Assembly: GCA_902567945.1 (NCBI GenBank)
Contig: CACFOC010000001.1
Span: 20,343-84,342, forward strand
DNA length: 64,000 nt
Direction: 5' to 3'
Source of the DNA: an uncultured Pelagibacteraceae bacterium
GTDB lineage: Bacteria > Pseudomonadota > Alphaproteobacteria > Pelagibacterales > Pelagibacteraceae
Shown piece by piece: positions 27,301-50,377 of this stretch. The notes beneath the pieces were generated by a model. That model had not been told where the DNA came from. It did no database searches and worked only from the letters and a program-made list of their open reading frames with translations. Position numbers and translations under genes: made by a program. Numbering within the stretch: position 1 is the stretch's first letter; every line of letters starts with the position of its first letter.

Positions 27301-28692
27301 TTAACCGACTGCTCTTTCGTCTTTTCTAGCCTGTTCAATTATATTGTAGTCTAGACCTGCTAACTCAACTTCACGAGGTATACGTAATTTACCTGCTCCA
27401 TGAAGTATTTTAGCTAAGATCCAACCTGGCAAGAAACCAAGAACACCGAACATTATTATAGCTCCGATAAACATTCCAAGAGGATTGATTGGTGCATAAT
27501 CAGTACCAACCCACATAGATCCTACACTGTATCCAGATGAAGGATATCCCCATAAAACGAAACCACAAATAATAAGACCGACAACACCAGCGTAACCGTG
27601 TACAGCTACAGCTCCTACAGCATCATCAATTTTAAATTTACGTTCAACATAATAATGTAATTTATAAGCACACCATGTACCAAAAGCTGCAATCATCATT
27701 GCTTGCAGAGGATGATATAAATCATTTCCTGCAGATGCAGTGATAATTCCTGCTAGTCCACCAGAGTAAGTCCAGAACGGATCTCCTTTAGAAACCCAGT
27801 ATCCAGCCAACAATCCTCCAGATAAAGACATCAAGAAATTAAATGTAATACCACTAAGTGTAGTTGGTGTTACATAAATACTTGTTGCGGTATAGAATGT
27901 TACTCCATCTCCCAAACCATATTCTGGTCCAAGATCGAATATAGGTATATTACATGCTGCGTAGAATCCCCAGAAACCTGTGTAAATTAAAAACAACCCA
28001 ATTGCTACGAACCATGGGTTTCTTGGTCCAATGTTTCTTGGTTCTCCGCTAGATGAAAATTTTCCTATACGTGGGCCTAATACAGCCAGAACTCCTAGTG
28101 CAAATCCACCAGCTATGGCATGAATTACTCCCGATGCGTACGCGTCGTGATAACCTAGTAATTTAAGCATCCAACCATCAAAGTGCCATCCCCAAGCAGC
28201 ATCGATTGTCCAGAATACAGACCCAATTGCGATAGCTAAAATACCAAATGCAAAAGTTGTAATTCTTTCAATGATTGCGCCAGAGACGATTGATGCAGCA
28301 GTCCAAGAAAATAAAAGGAACGCTGCCCAAAACACACCGCTAATGTGGTCACCTAAGTTAACCGCCATTAAGTTGCTTGTAGGTACGTACCATGTAGCAC
28401 TAAACAAACTTTCGTCTGTAATTAGTGCAGCACTTTCGTTCATAATTGAAGGTGCTAGTCCTGGTCCTGTTGGAAATGCCCAATAAATCCACCAACCAAA
28501 GAAAAACCAAGTTACTGTTACCAGTGGTATCAGCATTGTGTTTTTCATTAGAGTGTGTTGATGGTGTTTGTAACGTGATGCTCCAACTTCATACATACAG
28601 AATCCCACGTGAATTAAAAACATGAGTACTACTGTGATCCAGTAGTAAAATTCCGTAAAGATGGTCATTAGAGCTCCTAATCCATCAGTCAT
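27301..28692 (-). CDS. amt: Ammonium/methylammonium transporter (Amt family)
   Basis: The Amt signature is KIDDAVGAVAVHGYAGVVGLI. I trimmed the start to the ATG at 28692 (MTDGLGAL...) because GGGAGGAG lies 6 nt upstream. The track start is 28746. Confidence 0.85.
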   Translation of the reverse strand: MTDGLGALMTIFTEFYYWITVVLMFLIHVGFCMYEVGASRYKHHQHTLMKNTMLIPLVTVTWFFFGWWIYWAFPTGPGLAPSIMNESAALITDESLFSATWYVPTSNLMAVNLGDHISGVFWAAFLLFSWTAASIVSGAIIERITTFAFGILAIAIGSVFWTIDAAWGWHFDGWMLKLLGYHDAYASGVIHAIAGGFALGVLAVLGPRIGKFSSSGEPRNIGPRNPWFVAIGLFLIYTGFWGFYAACNIPIFDLGPEYGLGDGVTFYTATSIYVTPTTLSGITFNFLMSLSGGLLAGYWVSKGDPFWTYSGGLAGIITASAGNDLYHPLQAMMIAAFGTWCAYKLHYYVERKFKIDDAVGAVAVHGYAGVVGLIICGFVLWGYPSSGYSVGSMWVGTDYAPINPLGMFIGAIIMFGVLGFLPGWILAKILHGAGKLRIPREVELAGLDYNIIEQARKDERAVG

Positions 28693-28814
28693 ATTTTTCT
28701 CCTCCCTTAATAAAACTCCAAATAGTCTATTAGGTGCGACAAACACTACAAGTGTCTAGAGTCATTGATAGGTAATAGTTTTTTATATTAAATCAACTTC
28801 TGATTGTATTTTTA

Positions 28815-29210
28815 TTAGAATTTTTTGTAAGCTTTTTTCAAATCAACAAGAGGGTGATTTGGAGACATTTGAAATTTAATTAGCAATTCTCTTGCAATCA
28901 TATCTCTATCTTGTTGGCTGTCTGGTAATTTTATTTTTTTAGGAATAGTAACCCAGCCATTTGCATTTCTGCAAAAAACAGCTGGCCGTCCTTCTTCATA
29001 TCCCATATGAACATCTTCCAGCCAATTTAAATCATCCCAACCCATATGATCAATATATTTTTTAAGAAAAGGAGTAACCTTTTTATAATCTGGCAGCAAG
29101 TTTACATCATATCGATAACCAATATGTTGACCAATCATTTTTTCTCTAGAACTCTCTTTTTCTTTTGGTTTAGAAATTTTTTTTATTTTTTTATTTTTTT
29201 TCTTAGGCAT
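28815..29210 (-). CDS. Hypothetical 131-aa protein with a lysine-rich N-terminus, last gene of the mgs operon
   Basis: It starts 5 nt after the mgsC stop. I recognise no family. Confidence 0.5.
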   Translation of the reverse strand: MPKKKNKKIKKISKPKEKESSREKMIGQHIGYRYDVNLLPDYKKVTPFLKKYIDHMGWDDLNWLEDVHMGYEEGRPAVFCRNANGWVTIPKKIKLPDSQQDRDMIARELLIKFQMSPNHPLVDLKKAYKKF

Positions 29211-29215: not shown

Positions 29216-30589
29216 CTAAATTTTATGGTAATCATCCACTCCTACAGTATGGTTTGTTCCTGTTAATGGAACTTTTGCTAAAGCAGAAGCTTCCATTGTT
29301 AACGCTGCTAAATCTTCTGGTTCTAAGGAATGAACATTAGTTTTTCCACAAGCACGAGCTAGCAATTGTAATTCTAATGCCATTGAATGCAGATAATTAT
29401 AAACTCTTAACGCTGCATCATCAGGGTTTAATCTTTTTCTTAATTTTGGATTTTGTGTTGCCACACCCACTGGACAACGACCTGTATGACAGTGGTAACA
29501 ATGTCCAGCTTTAACTCCCATTTCTTTTTCAAAATCAACTCCTGGGATTTCTTTATTGCAATTTAGAGCTATCATTGAGCCTGTTCCAATAGCAACCGCA
29601 TCAGCGCCTAATGCCAAAGCTTTTGCTAAATCTGCGCCATCTCTAACCCCGCCAGCATAAATTAAAGTCACTTTTCCAGTTTGTCCCACATCATCCAAAG
29701 CTCTTCTTGCTTCACGAATAGCGGCTATACCAGGAATACCAGTATTGGCTGCAGCGATATGAGGTCCGGCACCAGTAGATCCTTCCATGCCATCTAAATA
29801 AATTGAATCAGGATCGCACTTTGCTGCCATACGAACATCATCATAAACTTTAGCAGCTCCTAATTTCAATTGTATTGGAACTTGATTATTTGTTAGTTCT
29901 CTTAATTCTTGGACTTTTAAAAAAAGATCATCTGGTCCTAACCAGTCAGGGTGTCTGGCTGGAGAACGTTGATCAATTCCTGATGGAAGCGAACGCATTT
30001 CAGCTACTTGGTCAGTAACTTTTTGACCCATAAGGTGACCACCCATTCCAACTTTTTGACCTTGTCCTATAAAAACTTCTATACCGTCCGCTAATTGCGC
30101 ATGATGAGGATTAAATCCGTATCGTGATTGTATACATTGGTAAAACCATTTTTCTGAATATCTTCTTTCATCTGGGATCATACCACCTTCACCTGAACAT
30201 GTGGCACTTCCAGCCATTGTTGCTCCTCTAGCTAATGCAGTTTTAGCTTCATAAGAAAGAGCTCCAAAACTCATTCCTGTTATATAAACAGGAATATCTA
30301 ATTCGATTGGATTTTTGCAACGAGGTCCAATAATTGTTTTTGTTTCACATTTTTCTCTATAACCTTCGATAACAAATCTTGTAAGAGTTCCTGGTAAAAA
30401 TACCAAGTCATCAAATGTTGGTATTTTTCTCATTAAAGCCATACCACGCATTCTGTACCGACCTAGCTGTGCTTTAATATGTATGTCGTCAATAACCTCA
30501 GGTGTAAAAATTGAATTTTGTCCTAATAAACTTTTATTTCTACCTTTTGTAACTTTAAGACTACCATTAGTTTTTTTCTTTTTAGCCAT
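29216..30589 (-). CDS. mgsC: N-methylglutamate synthase subunit C (FMN-binding glutamate-synthase domain protein)
   Basis: 457 aa with a GltB FMN-domain-like sequence (GMEGSTGAGP, GGVRDGADLAKALALGADAV). The gene order A-B-C matches mgsABC. Confidence 0.75.
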   Translation of the reverse strand: MAKKKKTNGSLKVTKGRNKSLLGQNSIFTPEVIDDIHIKAQLGRYRMRGMALMRKIPTFDDLVFLPGTLTRFVIEGYREKCETKTIIGPRCKNPIELDIPVYITGMSFGALSYEAKTALARGATMAGSATCSGEGGMIPDERRYSEKWFYQCIQSRYGFNPHHAQLADGIEVFIGQGQKVGMGGHLMGQKVTDQVAEMRSLPSGIDQRSPARHPDWLGPDDLFLKVQELRELTNNQVPIQLKLGAAKVYDDVRMAAKCDPDSIYLDGMEGSTGAGPHIAAANTGIPGIAAIREARRALDDVGQTGKVTLIYAGGVRDGADLAKALALGADAVAIGTGSMIALNCNKEIPGVDFEKEMGVKAGHCYHCHTGRCPVGVATQNPKLRKRLNPDDAALRVYNYLHSMALELQLLARACGKTNVHSLEPEDLAALTMEASALAKVPLTGTNHTVGVDDYHKI

Positions 30590-30590: not shown

Positions 30591-31433
30591 TTAAATTGCT
30601 CCTTTTTTTTCTGACGGTTCTAAAGCATCATAGTTCCAAAGCTTTTTACCAGCTACTACTTTAGTCATTTTACTGAAATCAAAATCAGAACCTATTTCTG
30701 CGACTTTTAATTTTCTTTTTAACCAGGATATATCGTCAGAAGTTATTTTTGATTTTATAGCATCACTACCAAATGATTTAATTTTTCCACCAATAAAAAT
30801 TGTTCCATCATACATAGAGTCCCCCAAGTTAATACCCGCATCTCCCAAAACAATTATTCTTCCTCTTTGCATCATAAATCCTGTAAACGCTCCAGCATCT
30901 CCACCAACAATGATAGTTCCGCCTTTCATATCAATTCCTGTTCTTGCGCCAACGCTACCTTTGCAAACTAAATCTCCACCTCGAATAGCTGCACCAAAAC
31001 AAGATCCAGCATTTTTTTCGATAACCACTTTTCCTGCCATCATATTTTCAGCACAAGACCAACCAACTCTTCCTGTTATTCTTACAACTGGTCCGTCAAT
31101 AGAACCAACTCCAAAATATCCGAGAGAACCTTCAAAAATTAAATTTAATTTATTTAAAATACCTACACCCAAACTATGTTTTCCTTGTGGGTTTTTTACA
31201 ACTACCGAACCATAACCTTCTTTCATTAAAGAATGTAATTTGTCATTAAGTTGTGCAGCAGTTAAATCCATAGCATCAATCTCAGTTCTTTTGTTAAAAT
31301 CAACGTCATGAGCGCCATAATAGAAAAAATTTTCTGCTTCTTCAGGATTAAAAAATACTTGTTGAGTTCTCCCTGTCAGAACTTCTTTATGTAATCCCAT
31401 AGATTTAGATTTAGAATTTTTTAAATTTGCCAT
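30591..31433 (-). CDS. mgsB: N-methylglutamate synthase subunit B (GXGXG-motif beta-helix domain)
   Basis: 280 aa. Repeated G-x-G segments are present (GDAGAFTGFMMQRGRIIVLGDAG). Confidence 0.7.
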   Translation of the reverse strand: MANLKNSKSKSMGLHKEVLTGRTQQVFFNPEEAENFFYYGAHDVDFNKRTEIDAMDLTAAQLNDKLHSLMKEGYGSVVVKNPQGKHSLGVGILNKLNLIFEGSLGYFGVGSIDGPVVRITGRVGWSCAENMMAGKVVIEKNAGSCFGAAIRGGDLVCKGSVGARTGIDMKGGTIIVGGDAGAFTGFMMQRGRIIVLGDAGINLGDSMYDGTIFIGGKIKSFGSDAIKSKITSDDISWLKRKLKVAEIGSDFDFSKMTKVVAGKKLWNYDALEPSEKKGAI

Positions 31434-32365
31434 ACTTTCACTTCTCCATCATAAGGATCATAGGTATCTATTTCTTGAGGCAACAAAGTCCGAATAGCTA
31501 TTTCTTCAGAACCTAATGCTACCAAATCATCAGATTCATACAAAACCATTGGTTTTGCTGCCATAGTATCTTTTGCCATACCCAAGGAATCTTTTGTCGC
31601 TACTAAATAAGTGAAAACTCCATCTAGTTCTTTTAAAGAATCTTGCATGCCATCTTTTAAAGATGCACCATTTCTCATTTTTTGAGCTAGGTACACCGCA
31701 ATAAGTTCTGAATCACATTCTGACATAAAACGCATTCCTTTATTTTCAAGAGCTCTTCTATTATTCCAGTAATTTGTTAATTGACCATTGTGAACTACGG
31801 ATACATCACTAAATGGATATCCCCAGAAAGGGTGAGCTGAGCGTATATCAACACCAGACTCAGTAGCCATTCTTGAATGTCCGATTGCATGTGTTCCTTT
31901 TATTTTATCTAATCCATATTGTTTAGATACAACGCTTGCATCCCCAATATCTTTTACTAACTCTAAACTTTTGCCAAGAGATAGTATTTCTGTCATGTCT
32001 ACACTTTCAATTTTTTTAGAAAATTCCATCAAATCTTTGTCATATTTTATGCAATATCTAAATGAATATGGTGTTAACTGAGCATCGTTAACTATACTTC
32101 CACCGAGATCTCTGATGTGTTTGTCTACTTCTTTTCTTCTTGCGTCATAAACTGATTTTTCTTCATTGACGGCTGTACTTCCTTCTGCAACATTTTCTCC
32201 AACCTTAAAGCGCATTATATAATCTCCTTGATTATTACCCTTTCCATATAATGCAAATCCTGTTGAATCCGGACCTCTATGTTTAAGAGCCTGCAACATA
32301 TCTTGTAGTTCCTTACCGATATTTACAGTTTTCCCTTTATGAATTAGTCCAGCTATTCCACACAT
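31421..32365 (-). CDS. mgsA: N-methylglutamate synthase subunit A (class-II/Ntn glutamine amidotransferase domain)
   Basis: 314 aa with N-terminal MCGIAG. It overlaps mgsB by 13 nt. Confidence 0.75.
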   Translation of the reverse strand: MCGIAGLIHKGKTVNIGKELQDMLQALKHRGPDSTGFALYGKGNNQGDYIMRFKVGENVAEGSTAVNEEKSVYDARRKEVDKHIRDLGGSIVNDAQLTPYSFRYCIKYDKDLMEFSKKIESVDMTEILSLGKSLELVKDIGDASVVSKQYGLDKIKGTHAIGHSRMATESGVDIRSAHPFWGYPFSDVSVVHNGQLTNYWNNRRALENKGMRFMSECDSELIAVYLAQKMRNGASLKDGMQDSLKELDGVFTYLVATKDSLGMAKDTMAAKPMVLYESDDLVALGSEEIAIRTLLPQEIDTYDPYDGEVKVWQI

Positions 32366-32386: not shown

Positions 32387-33856
32387 CTATGGTAAACAAT
32401 CCAAATAGGTATCAAGATCCCATTGCGTAGTAGCGCCTAAGAATTTTTCCCATTCATCATTTTTATACCAATGAAAAACTTTGTACATTTCATCAGGCAT
32501 TGCTGATTTAATCACTTCATCTTCTGCTAATCTGTCTAAAGCCTCTCCTAAACTTAATGGAAGTTTTTTGACATCTTTACCTGCTTTTTTAGCTTCATAC
32601 ATACTTCTAGATTCAGGCTTAGATGGTGTTAGTTTTTTTGAAATACCATGATCACACGCTTTTAATAAAGCTGCACCTAAAAGATATGGATTATGCATAG
32701 AGTCAACTGATCTATACTCAAATCTTCCAGGAGCTGATACTCTTAAACCACAAGTTCTGTTTTGGTATCCCCAATCAGCATAAACTGGAGCCCAGAAACC
32801 TTGATCCCAAAGTCTTCTGTAAGAATTAACTGTTGAAGATCCTAATGCAGTTAAAGCAGGCAAGTGTTCCATTATTCCAGCAATGGACTGTAAACCAATT
32901 TTACCTGGTAGTTGCATATCTTTAGTATCAGGCATGAAAGTATTTGTGCCTCCCTGCACATAACCAAACACTTCTTCTACTCCAGGTAATTTTTTATTAC
33001 CTAATTTGTTTGTTACAACTTTTCCACCTTTCCATAAAGACATGTTTGTATGGCAACCACTTGCAGATACACCCATAAAAGGTTTTGTCATGAAGCATGC
33101 TATTAAATTATGTTCTCTAGCAACTTGCGCACAAATTTGTCTGTAAGTAGAAAGTCTATCAGCGTTTCTTAAAACATTATCGTATGTCCAGTTTAATTCT
33201 AATTGTCCTGGAGCATCTTCATGGTCACCTTGAATCATATCTAAACCCATGGCTGAAGCGTACTCAATTACTTTCATAAACACAGGTCTTAATGATTCAA
33301 ATTGATCAATGTGATAACAGTATGGTTTAGAAAAACCTGATCCAGTAGGGGTTCCGTCAGAATTTTTTGTTAACCACATCATTTCAGGTTCAGTTCCAAC
33401 TCTCAATTCTAATCCATGTTTTTTCTCAAATTCATCCATAAATATTCTGAGATTTCCTCGGCAATCAGAGGTTAAATGTCCTCCTGGATTTTGTCTTTCT
33501 TCTCTGTTTCTAAAACATGTAACAAAAACTCTTCCAATTCTTTTATCCCAAGGTAATTGACAGAAAGTTTCAGGATCAGGTATACCAACAAGTTCCATAG
33601 CTTCAGGGCCGTAACCGATATAATTTTTGTGTCTGTCTACAAATAAGTTGGCAGTAGATCCATAAACTAATTGAAAACCTTTTTCTGCAGTTCTTTCCCA
33701 ATGGTCTGCGGGAATTCCTTTACCAACAACACGTCCTGTTACAGATATAAATTGGTAATAAATGTATGTAATTCCTAATTCGTTAATTTTTTCTCTAACT
33801 TTTTTAACTAACTTATCACGTCCTGGCTGGTTAACGTGCTTTTCTAGATCTGTCAT
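32387..33856 (-). CDS. Glutamine-synthetase-family ligase (489 aa), gamma-glutamylmethylamide synthetase candidate by synteny with mgsABC
   Basis: GS catalytic motifs are HEDAPGQLELN, SGCHTNMSLW and NSYRR. It lies immediately upstream of mgsA. Confidence 0.7.
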   Translation of the reverse strand: MTDLEKHVNQPGRDKLVKKVREKINELGITYIYYQFISVTGRVVGKGIPADHWERTAEKGFQLVYGSTANLFVDRHKNYIGYGPEAMELVGIPDPETFCQLPWDKRIGRVFVTCFRNREERQNPGGHLTSDCRGNLRIFMDEFEKKHGLELRVGTEPEMMWLTKNSDGTPTGSGFSKPYCYHIDQFESLRPVFMKVIEYASAMGLDMIQGDHEDAPGQLELNWTYDNVLRNADRLSTYRQICAQVAREHNLIACFMTKPFMGVSASGCHTNMSLWKGGKVVTNKLGNKKLPGVEEVFGYVQGGTNTFMPDTKDMQLPGKIGLQSIAGIMEHLPALTALGSSTVNSYRRLWDQGFWAPVYADWGYQNRTCGLRVSAPGRFEYRSVDSMHNPYLLGAALLKACDHGISKKLTPSKPESRSMYEAKKAGKDVKKLPLSLGEALDRLAEDEVIKSAMPDEMYKVFHWYKNDEWEKFLGATTQWDLDTYLDCLP

Positions 33857-33938
33857 AAAACCAATCCTCCCTCAAAGATTTATGTTTGAACTTTTTACTT
33901 GGAAATATGTTAGCTGAAAAACAAATTCCCGTCCAGAT

Positions 33939-35285
33939 TTAGCTCCAAGGAAATGGACTGCTAGATACTGGGTGTAATTGACCTTTCGCGTATCGATTGA
34001 ATCTAAAAGGTTTTAATAATGTGCTTTCTTTTCCTAAAATTTCATCAGAAACAAGATCTCCTACTCCAATCATTTTGTAACCGTGGTTTGAGTCAGCTAT
34101 TATGTAAACATTTTCACAAAATTTATCAAAGATTGGAAAAGAATCTGGTGTGAAGCAACCTAGTCCTCCAGACGGACCCTTGTGGTAAGTTTTTATTTTT
34201 CCTTTAAATCTTTTTTGACAATGTGCCAAAGCAGAACACCACATATGAGCAAATTCCGGCGTTGTTTGATATTCTGGAGAAGCAGGACCATAAGGATCAA
34301 CTTTTACATCATCCACAGGTCTCATGATTTTGTAAGGAGCTGAACCTCCTTGAACACCTTTAAAATTAAAGTCTGGTTTGTAATATATTCCCCACATTTT
34401 ATCAGTAATTAATGAACCATCAACATCTGAAAATAAGTGTGCATCACTGTCAACATGAATTACCGGTGGCATTTTACCATCATCAGTTTTTTGCATGTTT
34501 GGGTCTACTCCCAAAACACCTTCTGTTAACATCCAATATATCCACATTGGATAATCTTTATGAGTTTTACCTTTTTCATCTTTAATTGAAATTTTTTTAG
34601 GAAGTTCAAGCATATCCCAAAAGCTTTTTACCCAAGGACCAGCACCAACAATTACTTGCTCGCAATCAATAGTTCCTTTTGAAGTTACAACTCCAGTTAC
34701 TGCTTTACTATTACTTCCTCTTTTAAAACCTGTAACTTCTGCTCCCGTTATAATTCTTACACCAAAACTTTCTGCTTTATTTGCTAATCCATAAATTGAA
34801 GCTGTGTTGTTCGCGTAACCACCTCTTTTTTCATGCAAAACAGAAGTAATTCCTTTTGCTTGCCAATCATGAAACATATTTTTCATATATTTCATTGAGT
34901 CATCTTTTCCTTCAATAAATTCGGATTCATAACCAATTGATTTTTGTTGATCATAAATACTTGCAACATCTTTATGCATACTTTCTGGACTTATCTGCAT
35001 ATATCCAACAGGGTGATAACTAAAATTTTTTGGGTCACTTTCCCAAACTTTAACACTGTGCATCATTAATTCTCTCATAGCAGGTTGAAAATAATTATTT
35101 CTAACAACTCCGCATGCAACACCACTTGCTCCAGATGCAATTCCACTTTTATCTAAAACAACAATATCGTTGTTTGCAGAATTACCATTTTTTTTCTTAA
35201 GTTTTTCTGATAGGTGCCAAGCTGTACTTAAACCGTGTATTCCAGCACCTATTACTACAAATCTTGCTTTTTTTGGAAATGCCAT
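33939..35285 (-). CDS. SoxB/DAO-family FAD-dependent amine oxidoreductase (448 aa), substrate unknown
   Basis: The N-terminal sequence FVVIGAGIHGLSTAWHL resembles SoxB GGGGHGLATAYYL. It starts 2 nt after the tdm stop. Confidence 0.75.
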   Translation of the reverse strand: MAFPKKARFVVIGAGIHGLSTAWHLSEKLKKKNGNSANNDIVVLDKSGIASGASGVACGVVRNNYFQPAMRELMMHSVKVWESDPKNFSYHPVGYMQISPESMHKDVASIYDQQKSIGYESEFIEGKDDSMKYMKNMFHDWQAKGITSVLHEKRGGYANNTASIYGLANKAESFGVRIITGAEVTGFKRGSNSKAVTGVVTSKGTIDCEQVIVGAGPWVKSFWDMLELPKKISIKDEKGKTHKDYPMWIYWMLTEGVLGVDPNMQKTDDGKMPPVIHVDSDAHLFSDVDGSLITDKMWGIYYKPDFNFKGVQGGSAPYKIMRPVDDVKVDPYGPASPEYQTTPEFAHMWCSALAHCQKRFKGKIKTYHKGPSGGLGCFTPDSFPIFDKFCENVYIIADSNHGYKMIGVGDLVSDEILGKESTLLKPFRFNRYAKGQLHPVSSSPFPWS

Positions 35286-35286
35286 A

Positions 35287-37632
35287 TTATGATTTTACTT
35301 TCGTTTTTTCTGGATCATAAAAAGGAAATTTAACTACTTTTGCAGTTATTCTTTTTTGATGACCATCAATTTTTCCAACCTCAACTTTTGTTCCTATTTC
35401 TGAATATTTAACATCCATTCTGCAAAGAGCAATATTCTTATTTAGCACAGGGGATATCATTCCGCTTGTTATAACGCCCACAGTAGCTCTTCCTACGTGT
35501 ACTCCATCTCCATTAGCAGCTTGTTCCTTACCTATTAATTCTAAACCAACAAGTTTTTTTTGAGGAGAAGTTTTTCTTTTTACTAAAGCGTCTTTTCCGA
35601 CAAAGTCATCTTCCTTAGTTTTTAGCGCAACAGAAAAACCAATACCTGCTTCAAACGGATCGGTTTGGTCATTAAATTCAAAACCACCAAAAATTAATCC
35701 AGCTTCGATTCTGACCATGTCTAAACCTTCAAGTCCCATCGGAGAAATTCCTAAATCTTTACCGCACTCCCAAACTTTATCCCAAACCTCAGGAGCATCT
35801 TTTGGATGACACCATAATTCAAAACCCAATTCACCAGTATATCCAGTCCTTGAAACCATTAATGGTGTTCCTAAATGATCTCCAATTCTTCCTATTGAAA
35901 ATCTAAACCATTGAAGTTCATTTATCGTTGGTTGAGCAGGCGGAGTCCAAACAAATTTTTCTAGAATTTTTCTACTATTTGGCCCTTGAACAGAAATATT
36001 ATGGATTTGATCTGTTGAAGATTTTACCCATGCTTTGTAATTTTTTTTCTTTGCCAATTCTCTTAGCCACTCACCACCATATTCCTGACCACCAATCCAT
36101 CTAAACATTTCTTTACCAAGGCGAAATACCGTACCATCGTCTACCATACCGCCGTGTTCATAACACATGGCAGCATAACTCACCTGTCCAATTGAAAGTT
36201 TTTTAACATTTCTTGTTAGAGCATATTGCATTAAGCTCTCTGAATCTGGTCCAACTATTTCAAATTTTCTTAAAGGAGATAAGTCAATGGCGACAGCTTT
36301 TTCTCTACACGCAGTATACTCTTTAATAGTTCCATAATTTGTATAATTATTTGCAAGCCAATAACCATTATAGTCAATAAAATTTCTAGTAAGTTTGGAA
36401 GTTTTTTTGTGAAATCCAGTTTCTTTAGTCAATTTTGGCTCCGAATCTGTCTTCATTCTGAATGCTACCGCTTTTGAAAATTCTTTTTTCTTATCATAAA
36501 CTCTAACAAAAATATCAGTTGGATCCCACCCATTACAATCATCAATATCACTTGGACATGCAGTAGTTCCACAAGTTAAGTCTTTTAATGCACGGAATAA
36601 TACATAATCTCCGGGTCTAGCCCAAGATTCCCCCCCAATCACAGCATTTTGTGCATTAGCTATAGTATTAAAAAAAAGATTTATAGCAGGCCAACCCTTT
36701 CTTTTTTCAATCTCATACTTTTCTAAAGCTTTATTTAAATTATCACTACAGTTTGCATGACCGAAATATCCTGCATCCTCATAGTATTTTGATGTACAGG
36801 CTAAATTAAAAGTATCATGTCTTCCAACCGTATCCCTTACCACTTCAATCATTGGATCTTGGTCCATATCAAAAAATTTTGAAAACAAACCAGGCGTAGG
36901 ATAAAGGGCTCCCATAAATGTTCTTGTTGTTAATGGATCTAATCCTCGTTCAATTCCTTTTTCTAATTTTGCTGTATCAAAAGCTAAAAAATCAGAACAC
37001 TGTCTTCCAAAAGGATTTATAATTTGAATATAATCTCCTTTCTTAACTTGGTATTCGGTAGCTGTGCTATGCTCAATAAGTATTTCATTAAGTGGATCTA
37101 CCAAAGGTTCAGGAATATTTGGTTTATCTTTATATTTATTTGGTTTTGAACGTTTAACCATCAAAAGCAAATCCGTAGGTGGGTTTTGCTCATCTATTTT
37201 CATGGCATTACCAGGGGCAGAAAATATACAGGTACATTTGTCTTTAGAAACTAAATTTACTTTTTCTCCTGCTTCAGAATCGTCATTAAATAAAATCGAA
37301 GCTTTTGCTTTTCCAACATCTAAATTTCTTTTCTTCAAAGCGCTTGCCGCTTGAAAAGCACTTTCATTTTTGTCAGATAAAATTTGCTTTATGTTTTTTG
37401 GATCGTTTTTTTCTTTGAGTCCTAATAAACTACAGTCAGGTTTTCCATCTTTGTTAAAAACAATTATTTCACATTTTTGTTTTCCTTCTGTGTCAGTTAT
37501 TTCAATTTTATCATCAGGATCTAAAGTGATTATAGAAAGCCCTCCACCTCTTACTAAATACCTTTCAACTCCTGGTGGTAATGATCTAAGCCCAGGATCC
37601 TTGATATCCATGCTTGTTAAAACTTTGTCCAT
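35287..37632 (-). CDS. tdm: Trimethylamine-N-oxide demethylase
   Basis: 781 aa. A large N-terminal domain precedes a C-terminal GcvT-like THF-binding domain (RTGYTGELGFELWC). It is divergent from tmoX, matching my memory of the described Tdm architecture and context. Confidence 0.75.
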   Translation of the reverse strand: MDKVLTSMDIKDPGLRSLPPGVERYLVRGGGLSIITLDPDDKIEITDTEGKQKCEIIVFNKDGKPDCSLLGLKEKNDPKNIKQILSDKNESAFQAASALKKRNLDVGKAKASILFNDDSEAGEKVNLVSKDKCTCIFSAPGNAMKIDEQNPPTDLLLMVKRSKPNKYKDKPNIPEPLVDPLNEILIEHSTATEYQVKKGDYIQIINPFGRQCSDFLAFDTAKLEKGIERGLDPLTTRTFMGALYPTPGLFSKFFDMDQDPMIEVVRDTVGRHDTFNLACTSKYYEDAGYFGHANCSDNLNKALEKYEIEKRKGWPAINLFFNTIANAQNAVIGGESWARPGDYVLFRALKDLTCGTTACPSDIDDCNGWDPTDIFVRVYDKKKEFSKAVAFRMKTDSEPKLTKETGFHKKTSKLTRNFIDYNGYWLANNYTNYGTIKEYTACREKAVAIDLSPLRKFEIVGPDSESLMQYALTRNVKKLSIGQVSYAAMCYEHGGMVDDGTVFRLGKEMFRWIGGQEYGGEWLRELAKKKNYKAWVKSSTDQIHNISVQGPNSRKILEKFVWTPPAQPTINELQWFRFSIGRIGDHLGTPLMVSRTGYTGELGFELWCHPKDAPEVWDKVWECGKDLGISPMGLEGLDMVRIEAGLIFGGFEFNDQTDPFEAGIGFSVALKTKEDDFVGKDALVKRKTSPQKKLVGLELIGKEQAANGDGVHVGRATVGVITSGMISPVLNKNIALCRMDVKYSEIGTKVEVGKIDGHQKRITAKVVKFPFYDPEKTKVKS

Positions 37633-37742
37633 TAATAAAACACTATATCAGCACCAAAAATTGACGCAATCTACATTGACTCATCATGACCCAAACCATA
37701 CAATTTTGCTTATATAATATTAATATTATTATGGGGGAAAAA

Positions 37743-38681
37743 ATGAGAAAACTAATATCTCTTTTATCTGCAATAGTAATTTCTTTTGTTAGTTTCACAG
37801 GAATTGCTCTTTCAGCGGATAGTAAGAAACCCATTGTAATCCCAACGCACAATTGGTCAAGCCAAGTTGTTATGGCTTACGTGATTGGTGGAATTTTTAA
37901 AGAAATGGGAAACAATGTAGAATATGTCCCAGCTGACTCACAAGCGGTTTACGAATCAATTCGTATTGGCGATGTAACTATATCGCATGAAGTTTGGGAA
38001 TCTGCTTTTGGTAAATCATTTACTACAGCTTTAGATAAAGGTGGTTTACTTGACTGGGGAGATCACGAAGCAAGAACTCTTGAAGATATGGGGTATCCAA
38101 ACTGGGTTGCTAAATTATGCCCAGGTCTTCCAGATTGGAATGCTTTAAAAAACAAAGATTGCGCTAAGAACTTTGTAACACCTGACTCAGGTGGAAAAGG
38201 ACGAATGTTAGAAGGTCCGCAAACTTGGCACGGAGATTTAATTCCTCAAAGAATTGAAGCTTTAGGTTTAGGAGATCTTTGGACAGTTAAATTTGCTGGA
38301 AGCGCAGATGCACTTTGGGCAGAACTTAAAGCAGCTAAAAAAGAAGGAAGAGGAACTATAATATTCAACTGGACACCAAACTTTACAGATGGTGCTGGTT
38401 TTACATTTATAGACTTCCCTCCTTACACTGCTGGATGTAGACCAGAAGATGGTGGAGACGGAAAATGCGGTTCACCAGATGGTTATTTGAAAAAGGCTGT
38501 AAATGCAGACTTTCCAAAAACTCATCCAAAAGCTGCGGCTATGTTCAAGAAGCTTTCATTTTCAACAGGTCAAATTGGTGCAATGGCATCGTTAGTTGAC
38601 CTTGACGGAATGACTCACGAAGATGCAGCTAAAAAATGGCTAAAAGACAACAAAAAAGTTTGGAAAGCTTTTATTAAATAA
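37743..38681 (+). CDS. tmoX: TMAO-binding periplasmic protein of an OpuAC/ProX-type ABC transporter
   Basis: I chose the start at MRKLISLL, with GGGGGA upstream (track start 37686; ATG 37731 is also possible). It has a signal peptide and an NWSSQ motif, and it sits beside tdm. Confidence 0.7.
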   Translation: MRKLISLLSAIVISFVSFTGIALSADSKKPIVIPTHNWSSQVVMAYVIGGIFKEMGNNVEYVPADSQAVYESIRIGDVTISHEVWESAFGKSFTTALDKGGLLDWGDHEARTLEDMGYPNWVAKLCPGLPDWNALKNKDCAKNFVTPDSGGKGRMLEGPQTWHGDLIPQRIEALGLGDLWTVKFAGSADALWAELKAAKKEGRGTIIFNWTPNFTDGAGFTFIDFPPYTAGCRPEDGGDGKCGSPDGYLKKAVNADFPKTHPKAAAMFKKLSFSTGQIGAMASLVDLDGMTHEDAAKKWLKDNKKVWKAFIK

Positions 38682-38706
38682 ATAAGGATTAAAGCTACAA
38701 ATTATA

Positions 38707-38744
38707 ATCTCTCCCGATATTATGTCGGGAGAGATTTTTTTTTT
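38707..38744 (+). terminator. Rho-independent terminator after tmoX
   Basis: An 11-bp stem ATCTCTCCCGA / TCGGGAGAGAT with a 7-nt loop is followed by T9. Confidence 0.8.
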
Positions 38745-38769
38745 ATATAATTTTGTGTAAAATGGACCA

Positions 38770-39144
38770 ATGAAAAAATATATCTTTTATATAATTTTAG
38801 GTTTTTTAATTACGACCTCAACATTAGCTCGAAAGACGGGTTGTGAAGGAAATTGTGTAGATGGTTTTGGTAAATGGACTTATACAGACAAAACAACTTA
38901 TGAAGGGAATTGGGTTGGTACAAAAAAAAATGGTCAAGGAACTGAAATTTGGCCCAATGGATATATTTATAAAGGAGAATTTAAAAATAGTGAGTGGAAC
39001 GGACAAGGAATTCTAACCTTTCCAAATGGTGCAACTTATGAAGGAGAATGGGCCAATGGTTTCATGAATGGAAAAGGAACGTTTACTTGGTCTGATGGAA
39101 CACAAAAAACAGGAATTTGGAAAAACGGTGAATTACAAGAATAA
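38770..39144 (+). CDS. Secreted MORN-repeat protein
   Basis: 124 aa with a signal peptide. It carries tandem YEGxWxxGxxxGxG repeats (YEGNWVGTKKNGQG, YKGEFKNSEWNGQG, YEGEWANGFMNGKG). Confidence 0.75.
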   Translation: MKKYIFYIILGFLITTSTLARKTGCEGNCVDGFGKWTYTDKTTYEGNWVGTKKNGQGTEIWPNGYIYKGEFKNSEWNGQGILTFPNGATYEGEWANGFMNGKGTFTWSDGTQKTGIWKNGELQE

Positions 39145-39152
39145 TTAAAATA

Positions 39153-39704
39153 ATGCTACAAGATAAATATTTAAATAAATTAAGGGAGTTGCCCGAACCA
39201 GTTAGACAATTTGGTGGTCTTGTTACTATAACATTTATCGTAATTTTATCTTTTGCCATTTTAAATATTTTTTGGGGTGGAGGTGATGAATTAGTTAGAA
39301 AAATGAAATTAGAAGAGGAAAGAATTGCACAAGAAAAAAAACTAAGCAAACTGATTTCAAGCCTTCCACCAGGTATTTTAGTACCCTATGAAGGAACTAA
39401 AGGCCATAAATTGTCCGAAGAACAACACGAAGTAGTTTGCAAGGCAACAAAAATTGTATCCCAGCGTTCTGTTATGGGGGCTAATTTAATAAATTTTAAA
39501 GCTAAACACATATATACTATTAACGGTAATGATATTAAAGAAACATTTGTTAAGTGGGACAAAGAGAAAAATAAATGCTTCGCTGGTTATGTTGTAACTG
39601 GAAGCAATGTTGGAGTAAATGAAACTATCACTGTTAGTGGAGAGGTTTTAAGTTTTTTTAATACCGGAATTGATACAAGAGTTTATTTTATTAAAAATTT
39701 TTAA
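39153..39704 (+). CDS. Hypothetical N-terminally membrane-anchored protein
   Basis: 183 aa with one TM segment (LVTITFIVILSFAILNIFW). I recognise no family. Confidence 0.5.
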   Translation: MLQDKYLNKLRELPEPVRQFGGLVTITFIVILSFAILNIFWGGGDELVRKMKLEEERIAQEKKLSKLISSLPPGILVPYEGTKGHKLSEEQHEVVCKATKIVSQRSVMGANLINFKAKHIYTINGNDIKETFVKWDKEKNKCFAGYVVTGSNVGVNETITVSGEVLSFFNTGIDTRVYFIKNF

Positions 39705-39769
39705 GGGGGTAAAACAACAATTATATAGATTTTATTTTTACTAAATTTCATATAATTTGTTAAAAGATT

Positions 39770-40801
39770 ATGGCTGATGCGGTAATTAAATGCGATTCTG
39801 TATATAAAATTTTTGGAGCAAATGCCAAAAAGATGCTTCAAGAAGCAAATGGAAATGTGGATGCAAAAACATTCCAAGAAAACGGATGTATAGTAGGTGT
39901 GAACAATGCTTCTTTTGAGGTTTCAAAAGGAGAAATGTTGGTTGTTATGGGGTTGTCTGGCTCAGGAAAATCTACATTATTAAGGTGTATTTCTAGATTA
40001 ACAGACGCCACAGATGGAAAAATTTATATAGAAGGCCAAGATTTACTTTCATTAAAAAACAAAGAATTAATTGAACTCAGAAGAAATAAAATGGGAATGG
40101 TCTTTCAAAGTTTTGCTTTACTTCCACACAAAACAGTTTTGGAAAATATTGCTTTTCCACTTCAAATTAAAGGAATTAAAACTGAAGATAGTATTAATAA
40201 AGCTCTGGATATGGTTAAACTTGTTGGACTTGAGGGAAGAGAAAATTATTTTCCAAGAGAACTTTCAGGTGGGCAACAGCAACGAGTAGGTATCGCTCGA
40301 TCATTGGCTGTTGAACCAGATATTTGGTTTCTAGATGAACCTTTTTCTGCACTGGATCCATTAATTAGAAAAGAAATGCAAGATGAATTTTTAAGACTTC
40401 AAGAAAAATTAAAAAAAACAATCATGTTTATTACTCATGATTTTGACGAAGCACTAAAACTGGCTGATCGTATCGCAATTATGAAAGATGGAATAATTGA
40501 ACAGTTAGATACCCCAGCCAGAATTGTATTAAATCCAGCAACAGAATATGTAAAAAAATTTACTGAAGAAGTACCTAGGGAAAAAGTTTTAAAAATAGAA
40601 GATGTAATGGAAAAACCAAATAAAGAAAATTTAAGTGATTTAAAAGTTTCAAAAGACGAGATAATTGAAAATGTGGCTGAAAAAATTTTAACTCAAGAAA
40701 AATCAGTAGCTGTCACTGATGAAAGCAATAAGATTGTTGGAACGGTTCGTCCTTCGAAAATAATTCATACTGTTTTTGGAGGAAGAAAAAATAACAGTTA
40801 A
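39770..40801 (+). CDS. tmoW: OpuAA/ProV-type ABC ATPase of the TMAO transporter
   Basis: 343 aa. It has GLSGSGKST, LSGGQQQRVGIARSL and WFLDEPFSALD. Confidence 0.8.
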   Translation: MADAVIKCDSVYKIFGANAKKMLQEANGNVDAKTFQENGCIVGVNNASFEVSKGEMLVVMGLSGSGKSTLLRCISRLTDATDGKIYIEGQDLLSLKNKELIELRRNKMGMVFQSFALLPHKTVLENIAFPLQIKGIKTEDSINKALDMVKLVGLEGRENYFPRELSGGQQQRVGIARSLAVEPDIWFLDEPFSALDPLIRKEMQDEFLRLQEKLKKTIMFITHDFDEALKLADRIAIMKDGIIEQLDTPARIVLNPATEYVKKFTEEVPREKVLKIEDVMEKPNKENLSDLKVSKDEIIENVAEKILTQEKSVAVTDESNKIVGTVRPSKIIHTVFGGRKNNS

Positions 40802-40803
40802 AT

Positions 40804-42957
40804 ATGGAATTATTAAAAAAATATCCAAAATTATTTCAATGGTTCTTTTTGTTAATTGTATTTTTTGCTTTATGCTTTGCAATTGATGTTCCTGAAACCT
40901 ACAAATTTATAAGAGGTCAAGCGGAATTCATTAAAGACCCCAACCAAAGTACCTACACACTATTTGGCAAAGAAGTAAGATATTATGCATTTGATGTCTT
41001 GTGGAGACTACCTCCTTTACTTGGATGGTTACCTATTTGGGTAAATGACTCTTTGTTTTTCTTATTGAATGAATGGATGCCAATGGAGTTTTGGAATGAA
41101 GATCTTCAAGAATACAAAACTCGACCTTTAGTACTACAAATAACAAGAAATATAACTGCACTTATGACATTTCTTATTGAATTGATTAGAGAAATTTTAC
41201 TAGGCGGTGTTAAGACAGTTGTTGCATTTACCAGTTGGGATTGGATAGATAAAAATCCATGGGCAGAACTGCCAGGTTTACCTTGGACAATCGTTGCAGC
41301 GGGTGCGGTAATATTAGGTTACAAACTGAGTGGCAAGGGTCTAGCTATATTTGCTGGTTTAGTCATGGTTTATATTTCCGTATTTGGTCAATGGAAACCT
41401 TCAATGCAAACACTTTCTTTTATATTAGTAGCGGCACCACTTTCTTTCATATTTGGTTTGACTTTAGGTGTTATGGCTTACAAGAGTAAACGTGTTGAGA
41501 AAGCTTTATATCCATTACTCCTAGTGATGCAGACCATGCCACAATATGCCGTTCTAGTTCCTGCAATGGTTCTGTTTGGTATTGGAGATCATGCAGCAGT
41601 TATTATAACAATGGTTGTTGCTATTCCGCCAATGATCTTATTAACTTTGTTAGGGCTTAGAGCAGTATCTCCTGAAGTTATTGAAGCTGGCAAAATGAGT
41701 GGATGTAATAATTGGCAATTAATGACCAAAGTATTAATTCCAACTGCACGAAGAGACATTTTAATTGGAGTGAACCAGGTCATAATGGTGTGTTTCTCCA
41801 TGGCGGTTATTGCAGCTTTTATAGGCGCTAAAGGATTAGGATGGAATTTATTGTTAGCCTTAAATCAATTGAATATTGGATTAGCATTGGAAGCTGGACT
41901 GTGTATTAGCATGATTGCAATCTTGTTAGATAAAATGTCTTTGGCTTGGGCAAATAAACAAGAAGATTATTTTGGTAACCTGACGTTTTTTCAGCGTTAT
42001 AAAAATACATTATTTTTTGCTGGCGCCGTATTGATCGGAATTATACTTTCGTACGTTGGCTCTTTTTATCTTAAAGATGGTTATAATTATTTATACGAGG
42101 TACCTCACAATAAAGGAATATCAACAGCAGCTTTTTGGAACAAAGGTGTTGATTGGATTTGGGATACTTTCTTTCAAACTTTAAAAATATTTAATACTTG
42201 GTTAATAACAGAAGTTCTTCAACCAATGAGAGCCTTGTATCTAAGAATGCCAGCAGTTGCTACTGTGGTATTAGTTGTTGGGGCCGGTTATATAATTGGT
42301 GGAATTCGTTCAGCTTTGGTAACTGCTGGATTAGTATTATTTATAGCGTTAAGTCCATGGTGGGATAGAGCTTTAGTCACAACATACATGGCAACTTTTG
42401 GAGTTATTGCATCTTGTACAATTGGATTAACTGTTGGAACTTTATGTCAACAAAATAAATATACCACAAAATTTATGTTAGCAGTTTGTGATATTTTTCA
42501 AACATTTCCTTCTTTTGTATATTTAATTCCAGTAATGATGCTTTTTGGAGTTACAGATACATCAGTATTAATTGCGGTAATTGTTTACGCAACTATACCT
42601 GCTACAAGGTACACTATTGAGGGATTAAGAAGTGTTCCACCTGCTTTGCATGACGCTGCCTCAATGTCTGGTGTAACGAAATTTCAAAGATTAATAAATA
42701 TAGAATTTCCAATAGCATTTCCTCACATGATGCTTGGTGTAAACCAAACAATAGTATTTGCTCTGTTTATGGTAATAATCGGCGCATTTATTGGAACAGA
42801 AGATTTAGGACAATATATTCTAAAAGCTTTATCTGATAAAGCAGGAGGAGGAAAAGGATTAATACTTGGTATTTGTGTCGCTTTCATAGCTCTGATATTT
42901 GATAATTTAATTAGAACTTGGGTACAAAAAAGAAAAAAACATCTAGGTATAGATTAA
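40804..42957 (+). CDS. tmoV: Fused double permease of the OpuAB/ProW type
   Basis: 717 aa. Two EAA-loop modules are present (EAGKMSGCNNWQLMTKVLIPTA and DAASMSGVTKFQRLINIEFPIA). Confidence 0.75.
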   Translation: MELLKKYPKLFQWFFLLIVFFALCFAIDVPETYKFIRGQAEFIKDPNQSTYTLFGKEVRYYAFDVLWRLPPLLGWLPIWVNDSLFFLLNEWMPMEFWNEDLQEYKTRPLVLQITRNITALMTFLIELIREILLGGVKTVVAFTSWDWIDKNPWAELPGLPWTIVAAGAVILGYKLSGKGLAIFAGLVMVYISVFGQWKPSMQTLSFILVAAPLSFIFGLTLGVMAYKSKRVEKALYPLLLVMQTMPQYAVLVPAMVLFGIGDHAAVIITMVVAIPPMILLTLLGLRAVSPEVIEAGKMSGCNNWQLMTKVLIPTARRDILIGVNQVIMVCFSMAVIAAFIGAKGLGWNLLLALNQLNIGLALEAGLCISMIAILLDKMSLAWANKQEDYFGNLTFFQRYKNTLFFAGAVLIGIILSYVGSFYLKDGYNYLYEVPHNKGISTAAFWNKGVDWIWDTFFQTLKIFNTWLITEVLQPMRALYLRMPAVATVVLVVGAGYIIGGIRSALVTAGLVLFIALSPWWDRALVTTYMATFGVIASCTIGLTVGTLCQQNKYTTKFMLAVCDIFQTFPSFVYLIPVMMLFGVTDTSVLIAVIVYATIPATRYTIEGLRSVPPALHDAASMSGVTKFQRLINIEFPIAFPHMMLGVNQTIVFALFMVIIGAFIGTEDLGQYILKALSDKAGGGKGLILGICVAFIALIFDNLIRTWVQKRKKHLGID

Positions 42958-50107: not shown

Positions 50108-50110
50108 TAA

Positions 50111-50377
50111 ATGTTAGAAATTAAATGCCCATATTGTGGGAAAAGATCTCAAAATGAATTTTCTTACGGAGGAGATGCAAATATAAAAAGACCAGAATTA
50201 GGAAAAGAAATTTCTGATTCAGAATGGGATAATTTTGTTTATTTTAGAAAAAATCCACGGGGAAAACATTCAGAGTTATGGCACCATGTGGCAGGATGCA
50301 GACAATGGTTTAAAGTTTCGAGAGATACGTCGACACATGAAATTTTTAAAACATCGAAATTGAACGAAGAATTATAA
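50111..50377 (+). CDS. soxD: Sarcosine oxidase / NMG dehydrogenase delta subunit
   Basis: 88 aa. The Zn motif is CPYCG...WHHVAGC. Confidence 0.8.
   Translation: MLEIKCPYCGKRSQNEFSYGGDANIKRPELGKEISDSEWDNFVYFRKNPRGKHSELWHHVAGCRQWFKVSRDTSTHEIFKTSKLNEEL

Follow-up and report, generated by a model that had tools for sequence, protein, structure and literature searches.

The trimethylamine N-oxide (TMAO) demethylase Tdm yields dimethylamine (DMA) and formaldehyde or methylene-tetrahydrofolate (CH2-THF), and DMA is a climate-relevant precursor of marine aerosol. All Pelagibacterales lack dmmDABC, the genes of the DMA monooxygenase (Lidbury 2017, PMC5520151), and the accepted view since 2017 has been that SAR11, the dominant marine heterotrophs, cannot degrade DMA without them, a 'metabolic bottleneck' that has been invoked for the abundance of DMA salts in marine aerosol. 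SAR11 strain HTCC1062 nevertheless grows with TMAO as nitrogen source, for which an unidentified 'isoenzyme' has been invoked (PMC8918994), so a DMA route must exist in these bacteria. Here we compare the tdm locus of a 64,000-nucleotide stretch of DNA from an uncultured Pelagibacteraceae bacterium (contig CACFOC010000001.1; hereafter the window) with the described systems for methylated amines. We report a conserved six-gene module, consisting of a sarcosine-oxidase-like flavoprotein (DAO448), a ligase of the glutamine synthetase (GS) family (GS489), three synthase subunits (MgsA', MgsB' and MgsC') and a 131-amino-acid protein (u131), which is the best available candidate for DMA use by SAR11 without the known enzyme.

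The flavoprotein has been under suspicion before. Its ortholog in HTCC1062, SAR11_1304, carries the annotation 'monomeric sarcosine oxidase', adjoins the aminomethyltransferase SAR11_1303 (Sun 2011, PMC3160333) and was the second most induced protein in nitrogen-limited cells (Smith 2013, PMC3870248); it is also the 'general amine oxidase', induced by nitrogen limitation, that has been noted as untried on DMA (Lidbury 2017, PMC5520151). Both Smith 2013 and Lidbury 2017 considered SAR11_1304 as a potential demethylase of amines, and its function was never assigned; we found no literature on it beyond Smith 2013 and Sun 2011 and no later assignment of function. The gene neighbourhood, the DMA gap and the flavoprotein as a suspect are thus already known, and direct oxidation of DMA by this protein, which an initial annotation of the window made from sequence alone had offered as undescribed, was anticipated by these authors. 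What we did not find described in the literature is the six-gene module, its paralogy to GmaS and MgsABC, its spread beyond SAR11, its complementarity with dmm and the residue evidence for an N-methyl amino acid substrate; the search likewise returned no description of the DMA route proposed below.

The tdm locus and the absence of dmm

In the window, tdm and the module occupy the minus strand, with the following open reading frames (ORFs; lengths in amino acids, aa):

35287-37632, minus strand: tdm, TMAO demethylase, 781 aa, domains DUF1989, GCV_T and GCV_T_C (equivalog NF053776, 1162.6 bits against a cutoff of 1100)
33939-35285, minus strand: DAO448, sarcosine-oxidase-like flavin adenine dinucleotide (FAD) flavoprotein, 448 aa, SAR11_1304 ortholog (Pfam DAO, 122 bits)
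32387-33856, minus strand: GS489, GS-family ligase, 489 aa, SAR11_1305 type (Gln-synt_C match in two stretches)
31421-32365, minus strand: mgsA', class-II (Ntn) amidotransferase subunit (Pfam GATase_6/7)
30591-31433, minus strand: mgsB', GXGXG subunit (Pfam GXGXG)
29216-30589, minus strand: mgsC', flavin mononucleotide (FMN) glutamate-synthase-domain subunit, SAR11_1308 'gltB2' type (Pfam Glu_synthase, 300 bits)
28815-29210, minus strand: u131, conserved 131-aa protein, SAR11_1309 type, ending the module core

The tdm gene, whose product is 54% identical to that of the Phyllobacterium plasmid, is separated by one base between its TAA stop and the ATG of the flavoprotein gene, which in turn ends 82 nt before GS489, the arrangement given for these three genes in the initial annotation. 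In the 82-nt gap, as in the whole operon, promoter and terminator scans yielded counts that did not exceed those of shuffled controls. The annotation further placed mgsABC downstream of the ligase. A trio of class-II amidotransferase, GXGXG and FMN glutamate synthase subunits does stand there; it is a paralog of the canonical set (51, 37 and 34% identity to MgsC, MgsB and MgsA, respectively) rather than that set itself, and its membership, together with the 131-aa ORF, in a single conserved module had not been recognised.

Two sets of loci were compared with the window: 80 genome loci taken as encoding DAO448 relatives (66-89% identity), onto which the window proteins were mapped, and a reciprocal set of 80 GS489-centred metagenome loci, queried with non-SAR11 GS489 sequences. 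Gene content, paralogy, synteny and linkage statistics, residue conservation and fold, as given in this and the following sections, are established directly. The reference for dmm was the Phyllobacterium plasmid cluster tdm-tmm-dmmC-dmmB-dmmA-dmmD-purU-glnT-mgsCBA-mgdABCD. Searched by tblastn, its DmmA, DmmB and DmmC have no match in the window or in loci L001-L080 (E ≤ 1e-8) and none in loci L090-L169 (E ≤ 1e-10), that is, in 0 of 160 loci in all, and its DmmD matches only GcvT domains in the window. The annotation's statement that nothing in the window resembles dmmDABC therefore holds, and its remark that dmm is missing from SAR11 agrees with Lidbury 2017 (PMC5520151). In a set of 72,556 plasmids, 139 records have tdm and 147 have dmmC, both distributed over the same genera, and none has DAO448. 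At the level of locus and replicon, the distribution of the module is complementary to that of dmm, which supports the view that the flavoprotein and the 489-aa ligase take the position of dmmDABC.

One module-bearing locus (L104) encodes at 3474-4607 (minus strand) a DmmD-like GcvT protein 72% identical to Phyllobacterium DmmD. Its gene precedes DAO448 and the module by about 2 kb, on their upstream side, and dmmABC is missing within 8 kb. The protein may be a tetrahydrofolate (THF)-dependent formaldehyde-capture partner that was kept without the monooxygenase.

Conservation and linkage of the module

The order DAO448-GS489-mgsA'-mgsB'-mgsC'-u131 recurs, with proteins of 60-98% identity, in Pelagibacteraceae, Dongiaceae, Virgifigura deserti (L012), Taklimakanibacter lacteus (L057), Hyphomicrobiales and Burkholderiaceae, as well as in Gammaproteobacteria, a Candidatus Cybelea metagenome-assembled genome (MAG) and soil MAGs. 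With linkage judged within flanks of 8-10 kb, GS489 is present in 50 of the 71 DAO448 genome loci with enough downstream sequence, and the complete module in 35/52. Functional coupling of the flavoprotein to the ligase, as initially annotated, is thus supported across many orders. The core GS489-mgs'ABC-u131 is essentially invariant across the 80 metagenome loci, of which 65 have upstream room and 37 of these carry DAO448; the loci without it show no substitute flavoprotein, their usual upstream neighbour being a divergent ORF of about 246 aa. The u131 protein always follows mgsC', is 73-98% identical across loci and has no Pfam, NCBIfam or PDB similarity, nor is it named in any source; in many loci amt comes after it. 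Homologs of the module genes are abundant, with at least 8,000 candidates per protein search.

Linkage to tdm, within 10 kb in 26 of 63 DAO448 loci, takes at least four arrangements. SAR11 has tdm-DAO-GS-mgs'-u131, two loci (L036, L072) have tdm-GS-mgs'-u131-DAO, two others (L021, L099) have DAO-GS-mgs'-u131-tdm, and several are divergent, including some in which tdm directly adjoins GS489 without DAO448 between them. That the linkage persists through rearrangement provides good evidence that the module is functionally tied to DMA, the product of Tdm, and the several independent gene orders bear out the claimed link of the flavoprotein-ligase pair to tdm.

Several recurrent neighbours accompany the module outside SAR11. 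The ~246-aa ORF lies immediately upstream of GS489 on the opposite strand wherever DAO448 is absent (L161-L168, L123, L126), and in L104, which has DAO448, a 243-aa GntR/FCD-type ORF occupies the matching position between the DmmD-like gene and DAO448; this ORF probably encodes a regulator of the module outside SAR11. In soil and other Alphaproteobacteria (L012, L022, L027, L043, L054, L093) a third SoxB'/SoxD'/SoxA' set borders the module; it is divergent, with about 45% and 35% identity to the Mgd-like genes of the window, and distinct from canonical Mgd (63%). GS489-type genes of 69-72% identity also occur without mgs'ABC or u131 (L119, L129, L136, L138, L148, L151, L152, L157, L158), some of them adjoining tmm, or a divergent tdm-like gene (48-50%) and Amt (43%), and are possibly a ligase sub-type with another partner. 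A recurring 382-aa ORF upstream of DAO448 in gammaproteobacterial loci, considered as a DmmD/GcvT-like protein, was rejected, since it encodes a class I/II aminotransferase and has arsenic-resistance genes on its flanks.

The ligase and the synthase

Two further genes of the window bear on the substrate of the ligase:

27301-28746, minus strand: amt, divergent Amt-family transporter, SAR11_1310 type (Pfam Ammonium_transp)
25481-26806, minus strand: canonical gmaS, 441 aa (TIGR03105, 615.8 bits against a cutoff of 469.6)

The 441-aa ligase, to which the initial annotation in its second idea gave the handling of free methylamine, is a canonical GmaS by its TIGR03105 score, with 582 bits to the RhGmaS structure 7CQL and 57% identity to Phyllobacterium glnT. 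For this reason GS489 plausibly has another amine substrate. It scores 288.7 bits against TIGR03105, under the equivalog cutoff, and is only 30% identical to canonical GmaS of Phyllobacterium and 27% to the 441-aa ligase. In the alignment, all 50 of 50 GS489 orthologs keep the amine-pocket and catalytic residues of RhGmaS (K30', Y147, Q175, D177, E179, E186, N188, R312), and the pocket is lined by smaller residues (N176 replaced by G210, F185 by L219, with Ile in 1/50, and M187 by L221), the flap is shortened by five residues, and an insertion of about 27 residues is present. The nearest paralogs (~52% identity) carry the same pocket, flap and insertion traits and sit in ipu-like alkylamine operons with cytochrome P450, ferredoxin, type-1 amidotransferase-like hydrolases and aldehyde dehydrogenase, which suggests that GS489 is an amine ligase of a subfamily taking amines larger than methylamine. 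The Km of canonical GmaS is 27 µM for monomethylamine (MMA) and 16 mM for DMA with similar kcat, and the enzyme accepts ethylamine well (PMC7948447). A GS-type enzyme can thus acylate DMA, the canonical one would be useless at marine concentrations, and a dedicated ligase would be needed.

The mgs' trio follows the plan of MgsABC, with an N-terminal-Cys class-II amidotransferase, a GXGXG subunit and an FMN subunit in that order. Its subunits are 57-98% identical among module copies across orders (MgsC' 76-98%), and the MgsA' N-terminus MCGIAG, which holds the Cys nucleophile, is present in 48 of 49 orthologs; cleavage of a gamma-glutamyl amide is therefore expected of the synthase. The module and canonical mgsABC occur together in the SAR11 single-cell genome SAG AH-287-G05 (L077). 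HTCC1062 likewise carries SAR11_1304 (sox), 1305 (glnT), 1308 (gltB2), 1309 (hypothetical) and 1310 (amt) alongside 1313-1315 (glxBCD) and 1316 (glnT) (PMC3870248), and that so streamlined a genome keeps two ligase-synthase pairs in parallel argues that each pair has its own amine substrate.

The flavoprotein

DAO448 falls far below the NCBIfam cutoffs for its described relatives (TIGR01373 soxB, 87.5 against 529.45; TIGR01377 monomeric sarcosine oxidase, 40.3 against 479.65) and forms a narrow clade, 66-96% identical across orders, with nearly all full-length relatives in one 50%-identity cluster and a sister clade (P0127 type) at about 40% identity. The context of the sister clade was discarded as a substrate clue, its neighbours being unrelated genes (phosphonate-type binding proteins, sulfatase, creatinase-like). 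An AlphaFold (AF2) model from a 7-sequence alignment was discarded (pLDDT 48.5); after addition of sister-clade sequences, the model from a 71-sequence alignment reached pLDDT 92 and pTM 0.92. Its best Foldseek matches in the PDB, at about 20% identity, are SoxB beta, archaeal L-proline dehydrogenase beta, monomeric sarcosine oxidase (MSOX), dimethylglycine oxidase and dehydrogenase, and N-methyltryptophan oxidase (MTOX), with TM scores of about 0.7 overall and 0.70-0.78 to SoxB beta and MSOX. All of these structural neighbours act on N-alkyl alpha-amino acids.

Residues were compared with MSOX (reference verified as 1EL5 chain A; DAO448 numbering counts Met1). The MSOX triad Arg52/Tyr55/Lys348, which in the sarcosine-oxidase family binds the substrate carboxylate (PMC12582975), corresponds to R62/Y65/K404 and is invariant in 28 clade and 42 sister-clade members; Tyr254 and His345 are conserved as Y301 and H401. 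Together with the N-methyl-amino-acid neighbours, the triad argues against free DMA or an amide as substrate. MSOX Cys315, the site of covalent FAD, is replaced by G376, and the O2-activating Lys265 by Q312, with Gln also found in SoxB. Asn occupies the position of the SoxB 'RHD' histidine, which we take to be the FMN attachment site, so DAO448 would hold no covalent flavin of either known type. About 70 extra residues lie in the substrate domain, and the clade-specific basic residues K303 (two positions past the active-site Tyr), R71 and R428 would suggest, as a pattern read from the sequences, a dicarboxylic substrate.

Copies of DAO448 linked and not linked to GS489 are interleaved in a neighbour-joining tree, and we thus treat the clade as having a single function. 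Unlinked copies often adjoin SoxBDAG/Mgd-type genes, whose products take secondary N-methyl amino acids; in Pelagibius marinus (L004), for example, DAO448 stands by sox-type genes and GS489 is missing within 10 kb. In two Hellea loci (L068, ~7591-14223, and L061), DAO448 stands without GS489 in the order Rieske/ring-hydroxylating GbcA-like oxygenase, LysR regulator, DAO448, stand-alone GcvT-like protein and BCCT transporter, where a dimethylglycine-type (tertiary amine) demethylase would sit. SoxA/B-type genes are nearby in this betaine-like context, and the GcvT-like protein is 25-28% identical to DmmD and the Tdm C-terminus, a minor lead confined to these two loci.

A candidate route for DMA and its alternatives

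We tentatively propose that the module, built from paralogs, is a version of the N-methylglutamate pathway devoted to DMA, which would stand in for DmmDABC by the sequence DMA to dimethylglutamine to dimethylglutamate to N-methylglutamate to glutamate. GS489 would join DMA to the gamma-carboxyl of glutamate with ATP to give N5,N5-dimethylglutamine, which MgsA' would cleave by its Ntn domain, channelling DMA to the FMN subunit MgsC'. There DMA would condense with 2-oxoglutarate (from glutamate, with release of NH3) and be reduced to N,N-dimethylglutamate. DAO448 would then oxidatively strip one methyl group, giving N-methylglutamate and formaldehyde, and MgdABCD would take the second, giving glutamate and CH2-THF. 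Free MMA would be bypassed and no Dmm monooxygenase would be needed. We infer every substrate and product of this route as well as the role of u131. The broader claim, that the module provides some Dmm-independent route for DMA, is one towards which we lean on balance. The proposed route accounts for the second ligase-synthase pair, the alpha-carboxylate clamp of DAO448, the link to tdm and the absence of dmm, as well as for the frequent pairing of DAO448 with secondary-amine enzymes of the SoxBDAG type, a pairing that parallels the succession of dimethylglycine, sarcosine and glycine.

Several observations weigh against it. Some 30-40% of core loci have no DAO448 in their sequenced flanks, and ~30% of DAO448 loci lack the core, so the coupling is not obligatory, and the association was judged within 8-10 kb of the module rather than genome-wide. 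The residue arguments draw on a sequence alignment and a predicted, ligand-free structure. In nitrogen-limited HTCC1062, SAR11_1304 protein appeared de novo and SAR11_1305 and 1308 fell to ~0.67-fold (PMC3870248), opposite responses which show that these genes are not simply co-regulated. The window and most SAR11 loci have canonical gmaS after amt and no canonical mgsABC nearby, so Mgs' may also, or only, take gamma-glutamylmethylamide; either canonical mgsABC was lost repeatedly or Mgs' serves both ligases. The non-adjacency, the opposite responses and the missing canonical mgsABC are the points that the route explains poorly. In the searched literature, N5,N5-dimethylglutamine and N,N-dimethylglutamate were not found as bacterial metabolites, only as natural-product residues and a dimethyl ester. 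We also know of no precedent for a reductive condensation of a secondary amine by an enzyme resembling glutamate synthase (GOGAT).

The two ideas of the initial annotation fare less well in this light. If DAO448 were itself a DMA oxidase or dehydrogenase, releasing MMA and formaldehyde, GS489 and Mgs' would be a second, for example high-affinity, GmaS/Mgs system for MMA. This would be the simplest replacement for Dmm, alluded to by earlier authors, and would suit the translational adjacency of DAO448 to tdm in SAR11, the absence of dmmABC, the occurrence of DAO448 without GS489 nearby and the strong induction of SAR11_1304 under nitrogen limitation independently of 1305-1308. We nonetheless hold it to be distinctly unlikely, because it fits poorly with an invariant carboxylate triad and with fold neighbours of which none uses a simple alkylamine, and because it would make GS489 and Mgs' redundant with GmaS and MgsABC in streamlined HTCC1062 and leave the enlarged GS489 pocket unexplained. 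The other idea, in which GS489 makes N5,N5-dimethylglutamine and DAO448 demethylates this amide to gamma-glutamylmethylamide for Mgs and Mgd, appears highly improbable. The adjacency of GS489 and DAO448 in most loci favours it, as does its resemblance to PuuA/PuuB, where a DAO-family oxidase acts after a ligase, and it explains how two ligases could feed one Mgs' where canonical mgsABC is lacking, as in the window. It demands oxidation of an amide N-methyl, however, with a triad that adjoins the flavin and whose placing suits an alpha-N-methyl amino acid (a gamma-amide would have its carboxylate about five atoms farther away), and it leaves Mgs' a duplicate of canonical MgsABC in HTCC1062 and L077. 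To our knowledge no flavin amine oxidase of the sarcosine-oxidase type oxidises an amide N-methyl; these enzymes act on amines, in which the lone pair of the nitrogen is free, and PuuB oxidises the free amine end rather than the amide.

The module might instead be a second MMA pathway, with GS489 as a GmaS isoform, Mgs' as an N-methylglutamate synthase, DAO448 as a monomeric N-methylglutamate (or sarcosine) oxidase and the proximity to tdm a matter of general clustering. The triad and fold would suit N-methylglutamate or sarcosine no less well, in many SAR11 loci Mgs' is the only synthase at the disposal of canonical GmaS, DAO448 bears the similarity-based label 'methylglutamate dehydrogenase subunit A' in some sources, and in some loci the core operon occurs without DAO448 or tdm. 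We regard such duplication as unlikely, since every step would be doubled in HTCC1062, which also has gmaS, glxBCD and mgdABCD, DAO448 would be made redundant by the SoxBDA-type set directly after the module in several genomes, and neither the joining of tdm in at least four rearranged orders, nor the distribution complementary to dmmABC, nor the DMA step required for growth on TMAO nitrogen would be explained. Handling of another small amine (ethylamine, an isopropylamine-like compound or ethanolamine) by gamma-glutamylation and transfer to glutamate, with DAO448 oxidising the N-alkylglutamate, is in keeping with the ipu-like operons of the nearest GS489 paralogs (~52%), which share its pocket, insertion and flap, and with the ready acceptance of ethylamine by canonical GmaS. 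It seems rather improbable given that the module lies inside the SAR11 methylated-amine island and that the genes linked to it time and again are tdm, tmm, tmoXVW, fhs and mgd, not those of P450s, aldehyde dehydrogenases or hydrolases.

Other features of the window

The window is a SAR11-type methylated-amine island of about 31% G+C whose nearest genome loci are Pelagibacteraceae single-cell genomes. Besides the genes listed above it contains:

37686-42957, plus strand: tmoX-(MORN protein)-(183-aa protein)-tmoV-tmoW, TMAO ABC transporter (ProX-like, ProV and ProW family matches)
42974-44314, minus strand: tmm, trimethylamine monooxygenase (NF058570, 744.8 bits against a cutoff of 675)
48851-53965, plus strand: mgdABCD-like heterotetrameric N-methylglutamate dehydrogenase of sarcosine-oxidase type (soxB, soxA and soxG families)

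The mgdA-like (soxB-like) subunit is 63% identical to the mgdA beside the canonical mgs cluster. The island also holds fhs, two DMGDH-type fusions and betaine-type transporters, and Rfam 15 gives zero matches across the whole window.

The order tmoX-MORN-183-aa-tmoV-tmoW is kept in SAR11 loci. The 124-aa MORN-repeat protein (38770-39144, plus strand) and the 183-aa protein (39153-39704, plus strand), which has no domain match, are retained between tmoX and tmoV in most of these loci at 43-87% identity and seem to be part of the TMAO transporter operon. Between tmm and fhs, two divergent type-1 glutamine-amidotransferase-like genes (45589-46287, minus strand, and 46288-47079, plus strand) adjoin an Fe-alcohol dehydrogenase gene; proteins of this kind are gamma-glutamyl-amide hydrolases in puu/ipu pathways, and this pair (45589-47079) could hydrolyse gamma-glutamyl amines.

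The region between SAR11_1309 and SAR11_1310 was among those screened for candidate structured RNAs (Meyer et al. 2009), and a riboswitch over amt translation has been proposed (Smith 2013, PMC3870248). In the window the corresponding u131-amt gap (28747-28814) is only 68 nt long and has no Rfam 15 match. Elsewhere (3209-4315, 5250-7700, 10919-12052, 17327-19744 and 57257-60515) lies a dense set of quaternary and methylated-amine genes, which includes the two DAO-GcvT fusions of DMGDH/SARDH type, two dioxygenases resembling TauD/gamma-butyrobetaine hydroxylase, two members of the homocysteine S-methyltransferase family, and genes for an M19 dipeptidase, a 556-aa unknown protein and a DUF3726 protein, in that order.

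Implications

A single 'sarcosine oxidase' candidate is here replaced by a defined six-gene module found across many taxa and with testable chemistry, so that a recognised question in marine nitrogen and aerosol biogeochemistry becomes directly testable by a few enzyme assays. If the proposed route is true, SAR11 and many other marine and soil Proteobacteria would have an ATP-dependent, glutamate-mediated route for DMA, and the inferred 'DMA bottleneck' in the marine methylated-amine cycle would be removed. Marine DMA turnover as estimated from dmm counts in metagenomes would then be greatly underestimated, and the module genes would be better markers of it. The route would also add two new metabolites and a new specificity in each of three enzyme families.

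Comparison with known systems

The module shares its niche with DmmDABC, which likewise sits beside tdm/tmm and upstream of gmaS/mgs genes with a presumed role in DMA consumption (Lidbury 2017; Zhu 2014). The two have no sequence or fold relationship. DmmDABC is a system of DUF3445, PDR-VanB reductase and DmmA proteins that uses NAD(P)H and O2 and yields free MMA, whereas the module joins an amidotransferase and a flavoprotein to an ATP-dependent ligase, and MMA is probably never set free.

DAO448 has the two-domain DAO fold, GxGxxG motif, carboxylate triad and Tyr254 and His345 equivalents of the sarcosine-oxidase family (MSOX, SoxB beta, dimethylglycine oxidase/dehydrogenase, MTOX). It differs from that family in its low identity (~20%), in Gly376 for Cys315 and Gln for Lys265, in its ~70 extra residues and in the lack of a fused GcvT domain.

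In the PuuA/PuuB (putrescine) and Ipu (isopropylamine) pathways, as in the module, a GS-like ligase makes a gamma-glutamyl amide and a DAO-family flavoprotein belongs to the operon. The last enzymes of those pathways are a type-1 amidotransferase-like hydrolase and either an aldehyde dehydrogenase or a P450, whereas the amide of the module would be passed to a GOGAT-like synthase. GS489 reaches 214 bits against the cutoff of 650 of the gamma-glutamylputrescine synthetase model NF045547, and the module has no aldehyde dehydrogenase or hydrolase gene, the two type-1 amidotransferase-like genes of the window lying about 10 kb away.

The N-methylglutamate pathway (GmaS, MgsABC and MgdABCD of Methylocella, Methyloversatilis and Ruegeria; rhizobial glnT-glxBCD) resembles the module in placing a GOGAT-like synthase of three subunits after a GS-family ligase, to which an Amt transporter and a SoxBDAG-type dehydrogenase are often added, and in the retention of the ligase catalytic residues and the amidotransferase Cys. 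The module departs from it in the divergence of its ligase (27-30% identity) and synthase (34-51%), in its coexistence with the canonical set in HTCC1062 and L077, in the enlarged pocket, ~27-aa insertion and shorter flap of its ligase, and in the addition of DAO448 and u131.

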